64,000 nucleotides of DNA, taken from the NCBI RefSeq assembly GCF_030384885.1, contig NZ_CP128613.1, one strand, 5' to 3'. Shown here in pieces: positions 22,840-32,110 of this stretch. Within the stretch, counting starts at the first letter, position 1. The number at the start of each line of letters is the position of its first letter. The notes below the pieces were generated by a model. The model was given only the letters and a program-made list of their open reading frames with translations, had not been told where the DNA came from and did not search any database. Source of the DNA: Escherichia coli (lineage in GTDB: Bacteria; Pseudomonadota; Gammaproteobacteria; Enterobacterales; Enterobacteriaceae). The position numbers were made by a program, and so were the translations under genes.

Positions 22840-24135
22840 TTTGTATTTATGATAATTAAGGGGGGGTGCTAATTTAATATAAACACCCAGGGCAAGATTA
22901 CGAAAGCCCGCTCCCCGCAAGGACTGACGCCAGGTAGTTTCTGTCCATGGCTGCTTTTCGCATCTTACGCCTTAACCCTGCCCTGGATACCTTATCATTC
23001 GTCAAAATATTAATAGCAATGTGCCGTATCCCTGAAAATAATTCTGCTGCGTTTCCTCTTCTTATTTTGCTGTCGTCTTCATTCATTACCACGTCCAGAC
23101 GCCAGTGCAGCTTATTCTCCATGTGCCAGTGGTTTCGGATTGCTGTGGCGAACTTCTCTGCGGTTAAATCAGCAGAACTGATATAATATCTGACCGTCAT
23201 TTCTGGCTCTTTCTTTTGTTCTGCTATTATTGACCGAAAGGAGACTGCCACGCATAATTTCTTCAGACCTTTCCATTCAAACGTGAAATCAATAAGTTCA
23301 TCAGGGACATCGCAAACAATGTGAAGACGGATTTCTTCTCTGCCGTGACTCTTTTCACTCATTGCGTAACTGTCATGCTCTGGATTATTTAATTCTTTCA
23401 GCGGAAATTTTTCCTCGAAGGCTTTATTTAGCCGCCCCTGGTTTCCTTTTACAGCGAATAAATAATCACCTCCCTGTTTTTGTATCTTCTCTGCAATATC
23501 TTTCTGGCAACCCATCGCATCAGTTGTGATGATTTTTTCTTTAATATCCAGCATGTTAAGAAGTTCTGGGATAGCAGTAATCTCATTGGATTTCTCATCC
23601 GTCTTGATCTGTCCGATGACCAGACTGTGCATTGTTGAGAACGCACTAATGACATGAATCGCTCCCCTGCGGCGACTCTTGTCATAAGAGTGCCGGAGCG
23701 TTTTTCCATCAATTGCAATGACGCCTTTATCATCTGAAGAATGGCAGTCACGCATCCAGTTAATAAAGCACTCGTGAAATTTTGCAGGACTGATACAGGA
23801 TACAACTCTGGCAATCGTATCGTGAACAGGAATACCATTTTCAAAATCACCATATTGCTTCAAAAAATCGAGATGTGTTTCCCAAAAATCCTCTATATCT
23901 TCCCAACCTTCTGCACCCGAAATAACGGCGCAAATAGTCAACAGTAGAATATCCGATAATTTATGCTCCACTTTCCAGGCTTGTCTGTAATCGGGGATAA
24001 TAGAAATATGTTCCATCAATTTTTTAAGTACCATTTTGTTCTCCTTAATTATGTAAGGAGTATTTGATCATGTATAAGCAATAAAAAACAGCTTCAGGTA
24101 ATGAGGAATATCTCAATTTTTAAACATAAAATGCG
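22840..24135 (-). mobile_element. ISAs1-family insertion sequence (H-repeat element); ends approximate
   Basis: Contains the 378-aa H-repeat transposase; element ends not mapped. Confidence 0.45.
22898..24034 (-). CDS. ISAs1-family (H-repeat-associated) transposase, 378 aa
   Basis: Characteristic sequence [32 protein letters not shown]...[20 protein letters not shown]. Confidence 0.85.
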
Positions 24136-24203
24136 AATTGTTTAGTACAAAAAAGCAGCGTTAAGTGAGTAGGCCACCGGAACCTCCCCGACAGCCTCTC
24201 GCA

Positions 24204-24240: not shown

Positions 24241-25758
24241 TCAGGCAAACGCGCTTCCTGGTCCTGCTTTCCAGTGGGCAAACAACTCCGGCTTCTCTTT
24301 TGACAGCCTTTCCATTAGCTGACACGCCTTCGTCTTTCTATACCGCAGGGTTTTATATTTCTTTCTCGCCCACGCAATCAGCGTCAGATTAATATATCTG
24401 CATACTTTCTTCATCGCTGATTTGTGGTATCTCGCGTAATAATTCAGCCACCCCGATATTATCGGATTCAGCCACTTCGCAATATCTTCGAGACTCATCT
24501 CCACCCTGCGTCTGATCCACAGTTTCCTGAGTTTTCCAATCATGCCTTTCTGCGCAAGGTTACTCGCCGCCGGGCTGAAACTCGTAAAGAGGTTTCCCCG
24601 CCGGTGGTTGCGTGCTCTTCGCGCTCTGAACGTATACCCCAGAAAATCAAACTGCACTGTTTCATGGTTCGCCTGTCGTTCGCTGTCTTTGCAGTAAACT
24701 ATTTTCGTTTTCTCCGGATGTAATTCCAGTCCACATTCCTGAAAACGTTTTGCCAGCTTATTCAGTAATTCCTCTGCCTGTTGTTTACTGCCACAATGAA
24801 TTAATCCATCATCTGCATAACGGCACCAGGGAATTTCCGGATAATGTAACGTCAGCCATTTATCAAACACATAGTGCAGAAATAAATTCGCCAGTACCGG
24901 GCTGATGACTCCACCCTGTGGCGTACCTTTATTTCTTTCCTTCAGTGTTCCATCCGGCATCTGCACCGGCGCTGTCAGCCACCGGCGAATAGACAGTCTT
25001 ACCCATTTATCCGCACAATGTTTATCTACTGCCCTGAGTAATAAATCGTGGGGGATATTATCGAATAACCCTTTAATATCAAACTCAAGACACCAGTCGT
25101 ATTGCCAGCAACGTTTTCTGGTGACTGCTATTGCATCCAGCGCTGATTTTCCATGCCGGTATCCGTATGAATCATTCAGGAAATAACGCTCCACTAATGG
25201 TTCAAACGTTACCAGCACCGTCATCTGCGCTATTCGATCGCTTACTGTCGGTATTCCTAAAAGTCTTTTGCTGCCATCCTTCTTCGGAATTTCCACCGCA
25301 CGCACTGGCGGCGGCATCCAGCTTCCCGACGATAACCTGTTCCAGATTTTGTACAGATTTCCTTTCAGATCCCGCTCAAAATCTTTCAGCGTCTGGTTAT
25401 CCACTCCGGCAGCTCCGGCATTCGCCTTTATCCGCCGGTACGCTTCCACCACATGCAATTTACTGACCTGAAACGGTTTTGTCTGTTCACACACAGCCTC
25501 CTCCTGCCTACAGTTGGGCTGTGATGCAGACTGCCCGACGCTGTCCCTTCGCTCCACGTTCATTACAAACGCTTCCTCACTACTACGAACAGCTCTGCCC
25601 CGGTTTCGCACATCGATACTCTCATACTCATAATTTCGGTTATTTGTATTTCTCTCTTGACATTGCGACGACCGGTTCCCGTAGTTCCTGCAAAGAGCCC
25701 GATACAGCGTCATGCCTGCTATACACCGGACACCATTCACGCAGCATTCGGAATTCAC
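24241..25758 (-). CDS. Group II intron reverse transcriptase/maturase (no obvious endonuclease domain); true start probably internal
   Basis: RT motifs including KANAGAAGVDNQTL, GTPQGGVISPVLANLFL and the YADD box (CRYADDGLIHC), then maturase X (PIISGWLNYYARY); no HNH Cys/His pattern at the C-terminus. Confidence 0.8.
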   Translation of the reverse strand: MNSECCVNGVRCIAGMTLYRALCRNYGNRSSQCQERNTNNRNYEYESIDVRNRGRAVRSSEEAFVMNVERRDSVGQSASQPNCRQEEAVCEQTKPFQVSKLHVVEAYRRIKANAGAAGVDNQTLKDFERDLKGNLYKIWNRLSSGSWMPPPVRAVEIPKKDGSKRLLGIPTVSDRIAQMTVLVTFEPLVERYFLNDSYGYRHGKSALDAIAVTRKRCWQYDWCLEFDIKGLFDNIPHDLLLRAVDKHCADKWVRLSIRRWLTAPVQMPDGTLKERNKGTPQGGVISPVLANLFLHYVFDKWLTLHYPEIPWCRYADDGLIHCGSKQQAEELLNKLAKRFQECGLELHPEKTKIVYCKDSERQANHETVQFDFLGYTFRARRARNHRRGNLFTSFSPAASNLAQKGMIGKLRKLWIRRRVEMSLEDIAKWLNPIISGWLNYYARYHKSAMKKVCRYINLTLIAWARKKYKTLRYRKTKACQLMERLSKEKPELFAHWKAGPGSAFA

Positions 25759-26201: not shown

Positions 26202-26600
26202 TCAATATCCTAACGCTGGTCTTTTGCCTGTATTAACTGATTTAGCTGGTTTGCTACATATTAATGCCTTCAGATTTTCCCTTTCCTTGTCTGTGATACT
26301 GTCGCAAACCCTACTAGCCCATTCTACTTCACTCTTCTCCAGGCATTCTATTTTCTTATTGCTCATTGTTCTAATGTTTGGTGTTGCATCTCCATTTAAT
26401 AACATCCATGTTTCATTTTTCTTCATAAAACATCTTCCATTATGTTCAAAGATATTAGGTGTGAATATATTATCAGAATCCCATGTTACGACTTGCTCGA
26501 GGGCTATATTATCTTGATAGTCCATGCCAGCATTATAATAATCACAAGATATAATTATCATGGAAATAATTATCACTAATATCTTCCCAAGCATTTCCAT
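26202..26600 (-). CDS. Putative Rhs immunity protein, lipoprotein-like, 132 aa
   Basis: ATG directly abuts the Rhs stop (TAAATG); N-terminal signal with lipobox-like IIISC; AT-rich; the corresponding K-12 gene would be ydcD. Confidence 0.6.
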   Translation of the reverse strand: MEMLGKILVIIISMIIISCDYYNAGMDYQDNIALEQVVTWDSDNIFTPNIFEHNGRCFMKKNETWMLLNGDATPNIRTMSNKKIECLEKSEVEWASRVCDSITDKERENLKALICSKPAKSVNTGKRPALGY

Positions 26601-28314
26601 TTACTTTACCTCTTGAAATTCAAATGGGAATCCAGTGAAAGGACCTTTAGGCATAATATATCTTTGATATCCATAAAGCTCACCGAGCACTTGTAGGCTT
26701 ATAGGCGCATTTGTATTCATAGAGGGGTTGTTAAACCCGCACGCCTCAAAAATCATGTTCGTTCGGCTAAAACAATTATTTAAAACAGGAAGAGGCCCGA
26801 GGTTAATAGTTTTTAGTTTTTTATTAAGGTCTATTGCCTTATTCATCATACATTGTTCTTCTTCATCTGTTGTATCTATTATCCAAATCCAGGTATCTCT
26901 GCGGGGTTGCATCTTTTTAAAATAATCAGAGACAGAGGCTCCCATCTCATCCCCAGTTCCCGAACTCATTAATCCATATCGATTTGCCGCCGCAGCATGC
27001 CCAAAAGGATTATCAGGAACGGGGCCGTTACCTATTATCATAGTACTAAGCCCTAATGGATCAACGTGTTGCACTGGATTCAGCGGATATTGGTACAGAT
27101 TCCATCCCCCCTTCAGCCCAATCGGGTCCTGGATGATATACCTCCCCTGCAACGGATCGTAGTACCGGTTCCGGTTATAGTACAGCCCTGATTCCTCATC
27201 ATGCTGCTGCCCCGGCAGACGGTATGGCTGGTGCAGGTGATGCGGATTCTCCTCATTCAGCAGGTTGCCCCATTCATCATATTCCGCGCTCCACACCGTT
27301 TTGCCGTCTTCGCTGATGAGCGCCAGCGGCAGGCCCCGGTGGTCGCAGTGGTAAAGATGAACTTTTCGCGCCGGTGTGTATTCCGGCTCCACCTGTCTGG
27401 CCAGTTGCTCCACCGTCAGCCCGCACTGCGCAAGCCACGCCCGGCTTTCACTGCTCACGCGGTCTGCCCGGATTTCTTCCTCCAGTCTGTCCAGCAGCCG
27501 CACCAGTTCAGCCGGAAATACCACACCATGACCGTCCTCGCTCCCTTCCTGCTGTAACTTCTCCGCCAGGCTCCGGCGCTGCGCTTTCTCCAGTTCGGTC
27601 ACGTCTGTTTCGATGCGGATGAGCGGTGTGAAGCTTCCCGGCTCGTATACCGTCTGGATACGCGTGGTGTCGGTCTGTACCGTCGCCAGCCTGTCGCCGT
27701 CCCACCCGTACCACGTTACCTCCGGTTTACGCGACAGCGACATCCACCCCGTCAGGTCACGTACCCGCCGCCACACCCGTTTCCCCGTCCGGCGGCCCAG
27801 CGGGTCGTAGAGGTAGCGGCTCTCGACCAGTGGCTCGCCATGCTGTATCCGCGTGTAGAACACCAGGCGGTGCTGGCTGTCGTAGTGGTAGTGGTGGGTC
27901 CGCTCGTCGTCCGTCCGTATCACACCCGCCGGGATGCGGTCCGTCTTCTCCGTCAGCCTGCCGTATTCATCGTGGCGGTACCAGTGCATCATCGCGTATC
28001 TGTAAGCGGATATCAGAAGGCGCTTTCCAGCCGGGGCCAAAAATCCCCACAGGCGCAGGCGTCTTCGTCCGGTAGCTGCTGTAGGTGCGGGAGAGAATGA
28101 ACGGCAGCGGGCCGGGCAGCGCAAGGTCCGTCTCGCCGGGCAGCACCTTCGCCCCCAGCAGCGGATTTACCGGGTTGCCCGAAGTCATCCCGCCCGGACA
28201 CACCGAGCACGCCACGCCGGTGGGCGCGCCAATTCTTACACCTGCCGAACCCTGGACAATGGGACCGCCATACTGAGTCATATCTCCCTGACGCGCCGCT
28301 GGTTTTCCGCTCAT
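26601..28314 (-). pseudogene. rhsE: Rhs element E core gene, internally deleted/frameshifted: PAAR N-terminus joined out of frame to the 3' core plus C-terminal toxin tip
   Basis: ORF 27967-28314 encodes the Rhs N-terminus MSGKPAARQGDMTQYGGPIVQGSAGVRIGAPTGVACSVCPGG; ORF 26601-28124, in another frame, encodes the core end through DPIGL/DPLGL and a ~150-aa tip. Confidence 0.75.
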
Positions 28315-28380
28315 GATTCAATTCCTTCTTCTGTTTATTTTTAATGCTTGTTTGTTACTGAATACCGAACAGGTACGGGA

Positions 28381-29013
28381 TCAGTACTCTCTCATATCCG
28401 GCGTATCCTGCTTTTCATCAGGGGTCTTCGGTGGGGATTTCGAGGCTGCACAGTTCCAGTTAATCAACAGTGAGTCACCATTAACCTGCTCCTTACCCTG
28501 CAAATGAATTTTTGTGCCGTTGAGAAAAATTTGTCCGTCCTTAGTCAGCACCAGCCTTGCCTTACCACAGCAGAGTTCCAGATGCTCACCGGCGGAGTAA
28601 ATCGCGGTCTGCCCGGTATCATCCTTTTTCGTTTTACCAACGGTGAAGGTAACGTTATTTCCGACTTTGACGTCATAACCCAGCCCGACCATCAACGACT
28701 TATGCAAACCGATCTGCGAGGACTGCATCAGGGCCACCGAGGTGTTCATAATGCCACCTACCGTCGTCTGATACGCCACGCCCACGGTCAGCGCACGAAC
28801 AAGTCCAATCGTTTCCACCTGAACAGAGCCCACTTTAATGATCTGGTTACTGCCCACCGTCTCTATCTGGTTAACACCCACCGTCTGTATCTGATTGTTG
28901 GTAACCGCAATCATCTGATTGTTGCCGATGGTCTCAGCATGGTTGTTTATCACATCCGTGGTGCGGTTATTCAGCACCTCGGTACCGCCCCACCCTGATA
29001 ACATGATCTGCAC
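28381..29013 (-). pseudogene. VgrG C-terminal fragment (gp5-like beta-helix repeats), 5'-truncated
   Basis: 8-residue periodic repeats (NQMIAVTNNQIQTVGVNQIETVGSNQIIKVGSVQVETIG); no N-terminal VgrG domains upstream. Confidence 0.55.
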
Positions 29014-29438
29014 ATTGCCATCTTAACGTCGTTAAACACTGGCTTAATAGTGGATATTTCAAATTAGGAATTTATTAAATTCACCTGATGAATATCATAA
29101 GCAAATAGCATAGAAAATAATGACAACTCCCCCGAGGGGACCATTTCCAAAGCACTGCACCACCACCTGGTGCCCGGATGATCTTGCTTCAGTGGTAAGA
29201 GTACCTGATTCATTGTTCCCAAAATGGTGTTTTCCCCTGCCCCTGCAATAACGTGCAGCTCTCACGTGATAATCTATTGATTAGGTTATATTAAGAATCA
29301 ATATTTGAAATACATCCATTTTCTTGAATAAATCAACATATTTATTTATCAATTGCTGTTTTAGCTCTGACTCATCAAACTCTCCATATTTTTCCTACAG
29401 ATAATCGCGAATAAATACAGAGAACGCCATTTATCCTT

Positions 29439-29651
29439 TTAGCATACCTGCCGGATATTTTTATTTGTATTAATATTAATTGCATCTCCAACTCCGAGCA
29501 TATCCATCATTAAAGACATTTTGAGATTATAGAATGCCTGTGATAACAACTGAAACATCTGCACAATGTGAATAGTTAGTTTCTTTTCAGAGGAAATGAA
29601 ATAGACAAGCTGAATGAAAGAGAGAGTGATATAAATTAAAAAACATAACAT
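29439..29651 (-). CDS. Small hypothetical protein, 70 aa, AT-rich (position of K-12 yncH)
   Basis: 70-aa ORF in the yncG-rhsE interval; no motif recognised. Confidence 0.35.
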   Translation of the reverse strand: MLCFLIYITLSFIQLVYFISSEKKLTIHIVQMFQLLSQAFYNLKMSLMMDMLGVGDAININTNKNIRQVC

Positions 29652-29726
29652 GAATCTAATTAATTACGTCCATCATTGTGGATAAAGTTACTGAATAATA
29701 AATAACATAATCTTCTGGTATCCCAC

Positions 29727-30344
29727 TCAAATAATTTCATTCCTTTTTAATACTTCTTGTAATTTCGGTATCTGACATACAGCATCAGCGATCGCACTGA
29801 TATTCGTGGCATTATCCTGAAACCATTCATGCCCAGGCCCCCATGTGCGCATAGTGCAAAGATAACAGTCCACCAGCGTTAGTTGCTCACCAAACGCATA
29901 AGGTTCAGCGGTCAATTGTGAATTCAGCCAGATATAAAGCGATTTACGATATTCAATAACATTCTTCTTTAACTGTTCGGGTGCGTCAGGAGCCCAACGC
30001 TCAGGGTAATCGGCGAAAGTGAATGTTGGATAGACATTAGCAACCAGCCAGACCAATAGCCGTTGAAACTGCTGACGTTCGGCGCGCCTAACCGGTGGCG
30101 CAAGGTCCGGGCGACGATCGAGAACCATCAATGCAATCGCCGCTGTCTCCGTCATAATCTCGTCATTTTCCAGCGCCAGTGTCGGAATCTGACACAACGG
30201 GTTGAGGGTTTTCAATAACTCGCGTGAAGTTCCCTCGTGGTCAAAACCACTGACATCAACGAACTGATAAGGAATATCAGCCAGTGATAGCATCAGCTCA
30301 CTGATTGTAGAGCCCCATCCGGGTACGCCATACACCTTAATCAT
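29727..30344 (-). CDS. yncG: Glutathione S-transferase homolog, 205 aa
   Basis: GST-like N-terminus MIKVYGVPGWGSTISELMLSLADIPYQFVDV and neighbourhood. Confidence 0.85.
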   Translation of the reverse strand: MIKVYGVPGWGSTISELMLSLADIPYQFVDVSGFDHEGTSRELLKTLNPLCQIPTLALENDEIMTETAAIALMVLDRRPDLAPPVRRAERQQFQRLLVWLVANVYPTFTFADYPERWAPDAPEQLKKNVIEYRKSLYIWLNSQLTAEPYAFGEQLTLVDCYLCTMRTWGPGHEWFQDNATNISAIADAVCQIPKLQEVLKRNEII

Positions 30345-30610
30345 ATGCCCCTCACAATCTTTTAAAGATTAAGTGTAGGACAGTACACAGGTTAACCAGC
30401 AAAAGGATTTGTCATTTTTTCGTCAGTTGTATTATTCCCCTTCAGGATTGTAAGGGGATGTTTTGCATCGTTTATCGATAACGGGTAGGATGCTGCGCCG
30501 ATAGTTTTATACCCATAAAGAATAATGGTGATAACTATCATCGCCAGGATGAATAAACATTGTTCATGGCAACTTATATGACTTTTTCATTCAAGCAATC
30601 AGGGAGAGCA

Positions 30611-32110
30611 ATGAGTAAACACGACACCGACACTTCAGATCAACACGCCGCGAAACGTCGCTGGCTTAATGCCCACGAAGAGGGTTATCACAAAGCGATG
30701 GGCAATCGCCAGGTACAGATGATCGCCATTGGCGGCGCGATTGGCACCGGCTTGTTTTTAGGTGCAGGAGCCCGACTGCAAATGGCGGGGCCAGCACTGG
30801 CACTGGTCTATTTAATCTGCGGCCTGTTTTCATTTTTTATTCTGCGTGCATTGGGTGAGCTGGTGCTACACCGCCCTTCCAGTGGCAGTTTTGTCTCTTA
30901 TGCCCGTGAGTTTTTAGGAGAGAAAGCCGCTTACGTTGCAGGCTGGATGTACTTCATTAACTGGGCGATGACGGGGATTGTCGATATCACCGCCGTCGCA
31001 CTGTATATGCATTACTGGGGCGCATTTGGTGGTGTACCGCAGTGGGTCTTTGCGCTCGCTGCGCTGACCATCGTTGGCACGATGAACATGATTGGTGTGA
31101 AATGGTTTGCGGAGATGGAGTTCTGGTTTGCGCTTATTAAAGTGCTCGCCATCGTGACCTTTTTGGTCGTGGGTACAGTGTTCCTCGGTAGCGGTCAGCC
31201 GCTAGATGGCAACACCACAGGATTTCATTTAATTACCGATAATGGCGGTTTCTTTCCCCACGGTTTACTGCCTGCGCTGGTGTTGATTCAGGGTGTAGTG
31301 TTTGCTTTTGCCTCCATTGAAATGGTTGGAACAGCTGCCGGAGAATGTAAAGATCCGCAGACCATGGTGCCTAAAGCGATTAACAGCGTGATTTGGCGGA
31401 TTGGCCTGTTTTACGTCGGCTCCGTAGTGTTGCTGGTTATGTTATTGCCGTGGAGCGCGTATCAGGCAGGGCAAAGTCCGTTCGTGACGTTCTTTTCCAA
31501 ACTGGGCGTGCCTTACATCGGCAGCATTATGAACATTGTGGTGCTGACTGCTGCCCTCTCCAGCCTGAACTCAGGTCTGTACTGCACCGGGCGTATTCTG
31601 CGCTCAATGGCGATGGGCGGCTCTGCACCAAGCTTCATGGCGAAAATGAGTCGTCAGCATGTGCCGTATGCCGGGATCCTGGCGACGCTGGTCGTTTATG
31701 TTGTTGGCGTATTCCTTAACTATCTGGTGCCGTCGCGCGTATTTGAGATTGTGTTGAACTTCGCATCTCTGGGAATTATCGCCTCGTGGGCGTTTATCAT
31801 TGTTTGCCAGATGCGTCTACGTAAAGCGATTAAAGAAGGCAAAGCAGCGGATGTCAGTTTTAAACTCCCAGGTGCGCCCTTTACGTCGTGGCTGACATTA
31901 CTGTTTTTACTGAGCGTCCTGGTGCTGATGGCGTTCGATTACCCGAACGGGACTTATACCATCGCTGCGCTGCCGATTATTGGCCTTCTGCTGGTTGTAG
32001 GTTGGTTTGGTGTGCGCAAACGCGTTGCAGAAATTCACAGCACTGCGCCAGTCATCGAGGAAGATGAAGAAAAACAGGAAATTGTGCTTAAGCCAGAGAC
32101 GGCGAGTTAA
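30611..32110 (+). CDS. ansP: L-asparagine permease (APC family), 499 aa
   Basis: Starts MSKHDTDTSDQHAAKRRWLNAHEEGYHKAM with SD agggagag; start trimmed from the longer ORF. Confidence 0.9.
   Translation: MSKHDTDTSDQHAAKRRWLNAHEEGYHKAMGNRQVQMIAIGGAIGTGLFLGAGARLQMAGPALALVYLICGLFSFFILRALGELVLHRPSSGSFVSYAREFLGEKAAYVAGWMYFINWAMTGIVDITAVALYMHYWGAFGGVPQWVFALAALTIVGTMNMIGVKWFAEMEFWFALIKVLAIVTFLVVGTVFLGSGQPLDGNTTGFHLITDNGGFFPHGLLPALVLIQGVVFAFASIEMVGTAAGECKDPQTMVPKAINSVIWRIGLFYVGSVVLLVMLLPWSAYQAGQSPFVTFFSKLGVPYIGSIMNIVVLTAALSSLNSGLYCTGRILRSMAMGGSAPSFMAKMSRQHVPYAGILATLVVYVVGVFLNYLVPSRVFEIVLNFASLGIIASWAFIIVCQMRLRKAIKEGKAADVSFKLPGAPFTSWLTLLFLLSVLVLMAFDYPNGTYTIAALPIIGLLLVVGWFGVRKRVAEIHSTAPVIEEDEEKQEIVLKPETAS

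Follow-up and report, generated by a model that had tools for sequence, protein, structure and literature searches.

What is the AT-rich DNA at positions 29014-29726 of the window (that is, the whole 64,000-nucleotide stretch of Escherichia coli DNA analysed here), which separates a 5'-truncated vgrG from yncG? The first-pass annotation proposed that it may hold the deletion scar of a former T6SS-associated locus, an unrecognised small gene or an unrecognised RNA. Its description of the interval as about 700 bp of AT-rich DNA with low coding density and a 70-aa ORF as the longest agrees with GC and ORF counts. The GC content is 33.9%, vs. 48.5% for the whole window, which places the interval in the lowest 4.6% of 713-bp windows, and it is uneven: 29.6% at 29261-29726 (lowest 0.7%), 53% at 29124-29260, and 34% at 28984-29123. 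The ORFs other than the 70-aa ORF are 38-56 aa long, and the length of the 70-aa ORF is by itself unremarkable, since 21.5% of shuffled versions of the interval (dinucleotide-preserving) contain an ORF of at least 70 codons. The interval also adjoins the truncated VgrG 5' end as described, with the correction that the vgrG-derived part comprises 28381-28984 only. The interval and the genes on its two sides lie on the (-) strand, which is the sense strand for yncG, yncH, vgrG, and rhs.

We conclude that the interval is, very probably, acquired AT-rich DNA at the yncG end of the T6SS auxiliary island that lies between yncG and yddH (the RhsE element) and has decayed by deletion. Followed along the (-) strand, the interval begins with a 75-bp spacer and yncH; next are an AT-rich spacer of ~180 bp, a polymorphic patch that is GC-rich and ends in a weak hairpin, and the outermost 110-140 nt of a vgrG leader.

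Table. Features of the interval and its surroundings, in window coordinates
Feature	Position	Strand	Remarks
yncG	29727..30344	(-)	glutathione S-transferase family; backbone gene flanking island; annotation in relatives
yncG-yncH spacer, 75 bp	29652..29726	(-)	first DNA of variable island; no Shine-Dalgarno-like sequence before yncH ATG
yncH (b1455)	29439..29651	(-)	70 aa, DUF5445/YncH family; Pfam PF17520
AT-rich non-coding spacer 3' of yncH, 28.7% GC	29261..29438	(-)	80% identity to L013
Polymorphic GC-rich patch, 53% GC	29124..29260	(-)	weak hairpin at 29140..29128
Distal 139 nt of ~505-nt vgrG leader (110 nt within interval)	28985..29123	(-)	homology to L006
Retained 31 nt of conserved core GTGCAGATCATGTTATCAGGGTGGGGCGGTA	28983..29013	(-)	core ~35-40 nt in relatives
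Deletion junction A, 'TA' microhomology	28983..28984		base-by-base mapping to 2013C-4282
vgrG 3' fragment, last 201 codons, gp5-like C-terminal spike	28381..28984	(-)	pseudogene remnant
Deletion junction B in rhs core, 'GTA' microhomology	27978..27980		2507 bp missing, frame shifted

Colinearity with intact loci and the island boundary

Alignment to genomes with intact vgrG-rhs loci shows that the interval itself contains no scar. Strain 2013C-4282 (NZ_CP027579; locus L008), in which vgrG and rhs are intact, with a 702-aa VgrG and a 4.2-kb RHS core, is the closest relative, being 99.9-100% identical on both sides of the deletions in the window, and it is colinear with, and 100% identical to, the interval from end to end. 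Of 5426 complete E. coli genomes, 3563 have a match to at least 80% of the segment 28984-29726, in nearly all cases at 95-99% identity (~97%). The hypothesis that the AT-rich stretch is a product of deletion, that is, filler or rearranged DNA from decay of the T6SS locus, accounts for the abutment of the stretch on the truncated vgrG and for its composition, which is unlike that of the backbone; the alignments refute it. The same DNA is present, colinear and without any change, where both genes are intact, thousands of genomes carry it at ~97% identity whether their modules are intact or not, and the deletion junction lies outside the stretch and carries no inserted bases. We consider a filler-DNA origin to have next to no chance of being correct.

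The boundary of the island is observed directly in genomes that do not have yncH. These genomes keep yncG, and homology to the window stops at position 29729, inside the yncG stop codon; beyond yncG they carry alternative cargo, comprising either PAAR-vgrG-M35 peptidase (locus L004) or PAAR-vgrG-DUF2169-PAAR-like genes (locus L005). In genomes from which yncG, too, is absent, the cargo is an hcp-like gene with vgrG and rhs (loci L007 and L010). From the loss of homology at the yncG stop codon, it follows that yncH is the first element of the vgrG-rhsE-type island, rather than part of the backbone. The variable T6SS island begins exactly at the yncG stop codon, and the low GC content is a property of a horizontally acquired island edge, not of a deletion. 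Consistent with a variable locus, yncG..yddH has been listed among variable genomic regions in ExPEC comparisons (PMC12928451).

At the far end of the island, 2013C-4282 has a group II intron gene, an ISAs1 transposase gene, and then yddH. The window carries the group II intron reverse transcriptase/maturase gene (ltrA) at ~24362-25563 (corresponding to L008 1-1202), just past the ORF downstream of rhs; the ISAs1-family transposase gene (ydcC) comes next after ltrA, before yddH, in 2013C-4282. A separate observation concerns a 105-nt segment, 24058-24162, which sits between the ISAs1 transposase gene and the group II intron gene and is 93% identical to a portion of the leader of an alternative PAAR-vgrG module (L009 1-105). 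The similarity may reflect an IS end common to both, or the segment may be left over from the leader of another module.

The interval is thus common, already annotated E. coli island-edge DNA, with content that is already known. In itself this matters little; its use is to remove a false lead, the 70-aa ORF being yncH and the AT-rich DNA being normal island edge.

Deletion junctions and the vgrG leader

A deletion scar of the T6SS-associated locus does exist, at 28983/28984, 30 bases to the left of 29014; the part of the first-pass proposal that fails is the placement of the scar inside the interval. Base-by-base mapping assigns window position 28984 to L008 7130, in vgrG, and window position 28983 to L008 9000, in the leader. 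Relative to 2013C-4282, 1871 bp are absent at this junction (junction A), of which 1505 nt come from the vgrG 5' end and 366 nt from the adjoining upstream DNA; the microhomology is 2 nt long and there are zero inserted bases. The vgrG fragment that remains in the window is 100% identical to the L008 6124-7130 region, within the gene for the intact 702-aa VgrG. The bases 28985-29013, including the GTG start of the ORF called as a VgrG fragment, are leader DNA that is in frame by accident. Gp5_trimer_C is the sole Pfam domain in that ORF (28381-29013), whereas an intact relative (L011) has Phage_GPD, Phage_base_V, and Gp5_trimer_C; the T6SS VgrG/TssI domain set is thus incomplete in the window, the gp27-like (Phage_GPD) and gp5 OB-fold (Phage_base_V) domains being absent. 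Since 1505 nt of the 5' end are deleted and the N-terminal domains are gone, the vgrG piece is a pseudogene fragment.

A second deletion lies in the rhs core. Relative to 2013C-4282, 2507 bp are missing at junction B (27978-27980), with 'GTA' microhomology and a frameshift, such that the NCBIfam RHS_core profile is matched in two pieces (positions 1-112 and 949-1261 of 1261) and the core is read as two ORFs, an N-terminal one of 115 aa and a C-terminal one of 507 aa (27967-28314 and 26601-28124, respectively, minus strand). This frameshifting internal deletion makes the Rhs toxin gene a pseudogene as well. Directly after the rhs C-terminal toxin region, at the usual position of an Rhs immunity gene, is a 132-aa AT-rich ORF (26202-26600, (-) strand), which is annotated in the relative merely as a hypothetical protein.

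In the window, the KpnI hexamer GGTACC is found at both junctions, each being assembled as GGTA + (TA)CC, and GGTACC is absent from all four parental ends, which read GGTATC/GCTACC and GGTAGA/AGTACC. The presence of the same hexamer at both junctions may be a coincidence (roughly 1 in 256, judged post hoc) or may reflect a shared mechanism. Among 5426 complete E. coli genomes, none has an uninterrupted match to a 121-nt probe over junction A, from which it follows that the junction A allele is either private to the source strain or an assembly artefact; an artefact is also possible at junction B. With both junctions mapped, the true breakpoints that inactivate the vgrG-rhsE module of the source strain are now fixed.

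The DNA on the interval side of junction A belongs to a leader that is shared between loci. L008 8400-9140 is 81.8% identical to a cusS-adjacent vgrG-rhs locus at a different chromosomal site (L006), and this homology stops at the position equal to window 29123. The part of the leader that is retained in the window, 28984-29123, varies less than any other segment (3 variable sites in 140 nt). The shared homology indicates that a leader of ~505 nt travels with vgrG-rhs modules.

Alignment of the leaders of five island types defines a conserved core, GTGCAGATCATGTTATCAGGGTGGGGCGGTAGCGTAT, of ~35-40 nt, the flanks of which diverge. The core is found 250-400 bp upstream of the first T6SS gene, and the modules that bear it, at least five and otherwise unrelated to one another, are vgrG-rhs, PAAR-vgrG-M35, PAAR-vgrG-DUF2169, hcp-like-vgrG-rhs, and cusS-adjacent vgrG-rhs. 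It lies at 8991-9030 in L008, at 5759-5795 in L004 and L005, at ~5000-5040 in L006, and at ~4993-5030 in L007, and a remnant is present at 28983-29013 in the window; between L008 and L004/L005 the identity is 94.6% over 37 nt (E=3e-11). It contains a conserved GC-rich spacer, with GATC in most versions. In the intact relative, a promoter scan of L008 calls the core sigma-70-like, TTATCA-16-TATATT. The predicted -35 element survives in the window at 29001..28996 and the predicted -10 element is deleted, the deletion beginning between the two. We read junction A as an illegitimate, microhomology-mediated deletion of 1871 bp that starts in the leader, between the -35 and -10 elements of the core, and ends in vgrG. 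With the -10 element of the promoter-like core removed, both the vgrG fragment and the rhs core, which has a deletion of its own, would be pseudogene remnants lacking a promoter.

A search of window positions 28800-30000 for sigma-70 hexamers at 16-18 nt spacing yields 0 sites, vs. 5.0 +/- 2.2 expected from shuffles, and the intact relative has 3, vs. 6.0 +/- 2.6 expected. In K-12, the promoter proposed by genomic SELEX is TTGACT-17-TATTAC (PMC3946193), the equivalent of which falls in the part that is deleted here. An RpoN genomic-SELEX peak at K-12 position 1527534 (PMC8743547) maps upstream of the core, at a distance of ~43 bp. No canonical sigma-54 site (consensus TGGCAC-N5-TTGCW, with GG and GC 10 nt apart) was found on the two strands of the intact spacer, there being no GG/GC pair with at least 8/12 matches; a single 10/12 match does not have the GG.

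A degenerate-pattern scan of ~100,000 species-representative genomes returned two core loci, both of Escherichia type; one of them carries the label of a Citrobacter MAG and matches the E. coli yncG locus at 92% identity. The core motif sequence was not found in the literature searched. According to the hypothesis that the core is a shared promoter/operator that would co-regulate all orphan T6SS modules, the deletion in the window would have cut through a regulatory site common to them; we regard this as a doubtful proposal. A promoter-like core common to different T6SS auxiliary modules is a candidate common regulatory site.

yncH and the RNA question

The 70-aa ORF, which the first-pass annotation had considered as an unrecognised small gene, is the annotated gene yncH. 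Its product gives a hit to the entire profile of Pfam PF17520 (DUF5445; positions 1-52 of 52), with E=2e-39 and 133.6 bits vs. a cut-off of 25, and the ORF is located as is annotated yncH (b1455) of K-12 MG1655, 75 bp after yncG on the same strand. The ORF and its location are the same in K-12, the protein is 93-97% identical to database members, and the allele in the window differs from K-12 and database yncH by a few private substitutions, e.g. S11 and S46, and is otherwise alike. The yncG-yncH arrangement is the same in K-12, S56, BL21/NEBExpress, 2013C-4282, and 11 further genomes.

Homologues were found in Escherichia only. Word-indexed searches returned no others; an exhaustive HMMER search for distant YncH relatives gave Escherichia-type variants, frameshifted copies, and low-complexity noise; and the plasmid and phage collections yielded no more than E. 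coli chromosomes under wrong labels. A YncH protein scan of species-representative genomes gave 165 pattern matches, of which 0 were confirmed, and is uninformative.

The ORF and the locus are widespread in E. coli, but coding constraint looks weak or absent. The 18 segregating sites of yncH in 13 E. coli sequences are distributed 6:6:6 by codon position and pN/pS is 0.77, vs. 18:5:28 and 0.18 for yncG. The start is variable, with database forms of 70, 81, 93, 95, and 100 aa that arise through indels near the ATG, and the last ~66 codons are open in essentially all recovered variants. In a divergent metagenomic ortholog (L013), in which the yncG end is 92% identical, indels of +5, -15, and -4 nt occur across yncH, and identity is 77% in yncH vs. 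80% in the downstream spacer. Purifying selection on the YncH protein is not seen in these data, that is, in 18 sites from 13 sequences, the variable start, and the L013 indels that are not all multiples of three.

The hypothesis that yncH encodes a genuine small membrane protein that serves the vgrG-rhsE module, for example in an accessory, immunity-like, or regulatory role, is favoured by yncH always accompanying the vgrG-rhsE-type island and being missing where other modules fill the site; however, yncH is still present in K-12, where vgrG is lost, and YncH homologues are absent outside Escherichia despite widespread vgrG-rhs modules. The N-terminus is hydrophobic (Kyte-Doolittle ~2.0-2.3 over residues 1-19) and AlphaFold2 predicts two helices; however, the model is of low confidence (pLDDT 65.8, pTM 0.40) and too weak for a fold search, and hydrophobic peptides are the default product of T-rich ORFs, such that a hydrophobic N-terminus and a helix model do not discriminate for an ORF of this kind. 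The ORF stays open in most genomes, and against this are to be set the pN/pS without codon-position bias, the unconserved start codon and N-terminus, the frame-breaking indels in L013, and an ATG without a Shine-Dalgarno sequence. We consider the membrane-protein hypothesis unlikely.

A full-text literature search found no function for yncH. In AT-rich acquired genes, a low transposon-insertion frequency often results from H-NS coating. The transposon-insertion frequency of yncH is low in TraDIS (PMC5821084), and one source states that no information on the gene is available (PMC12924614). yncH is among the enriched alleles in an allele-mapping screen for antibiotic resistance (PMC4714920) and is in the gene table of an ASKA overexpression screen for resistance to oxidising agents (PMC8228696); given its appearance in both screens, some activity of the YncH protein is possible. 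The existence of a curated Pfam family is a counterpoint to neutrality. With moderate confidence, we take yncH to be a weakly constrained or unconstrained orphan ORF, and, on its pattern of variation, it probably has no important protein function. Near-neutral, Escherichia-only behaviour bears on whether yncH/DUF5445 should be kept annotated as a protein.

An unrecognised RNA, such as a small RNA or a structured cis-regulatory RNA, would have room in the 425 bp that separate yncH from the vgrG fragment, in which no gene is annotated. The proposal of an RNA found no support: Rfam gives 0 matches at E<=1 in 27500-31000, and of 52 sliding 100-nt windows on both strands none has a significantly more stable fold than its shuffles (best z = -1.58). 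A hairpin at 29140..29128, with a 5-bp stem (4 GC pairs) and an interrupted U-rich tail, might be counted in its favour, but the fold of that region is unremarkable (z = -0.08 vs. shuffles); the hairpin is a possible weak terminator after yncH. Conservation within the interval is highest in the leader, but no promoter-like sites are called in 28800-30000, and polymorphism in the non-coding DNA peaks in the GC-rich patch (14 variable sites in 137 nt, one of them a 1-bp indel). We consider an RNA in the interval very unlikely.

The small ORFs of the GC-rich patch are not conserved, since the 1-bp indel among the variable sites breaks their reading frames. They have no Pfam match, and the patch is specific to the yncG-yncH locus among the compared islands. 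As a recognisable gene remnant, the patch with its small ORFs (29064-29265) was rejected: Pfam, NCBIfam, and tblastn, the last run against the proteins of the compared T6SS islands, gave same-locus matches and noise only.

Comparison with acquired islands of enterobacteria

The edge of the island resembles H-NS-bound island edges of enterobacteria, with which it shares a GC content of ~30%, vs. ~49% for the backbone, and a position at the boundary of a variable island. For the K-12 spacer between yncH and rhsE, genomic SELEX lists H-NS binding and a RpoD-holoenzyme promoter (PMC3946193). A Rok/qPCR study that used a yncH amplicon classed the 3-kb surroundings of the amplicon as G+C-rich (PMC2978689). 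AT-richness and variable presence among strains both hold for the interval. We infer that the DNA of the interval would be H-NS-bound and transcriptionally quiet, the binding being known from genomic SELEX in K-12.

The module itself corresponds to the RhsE element, that is, the vgrG-rhs module at yncG..yddH, with which it shares the order yncG, yncH, vgrG, rhs core, small ORF, ISAs1/H-repeat transposase, and yddH. Decay of the module by deletion is common to the source strain, K-12, in which rhsE is a pseudogene, and BL21. The deletions in the source strain differ from those in the other two and look private, one of 1871 bp removing part of the leader and the vgrG 5' end and one of 2507 bp removing part of the rhs core. 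In K-12, by contrast, the full 737-bp spacer is kept and vgrG is absent, and in BL21, by contrast, the vgrG 5' end is retained.
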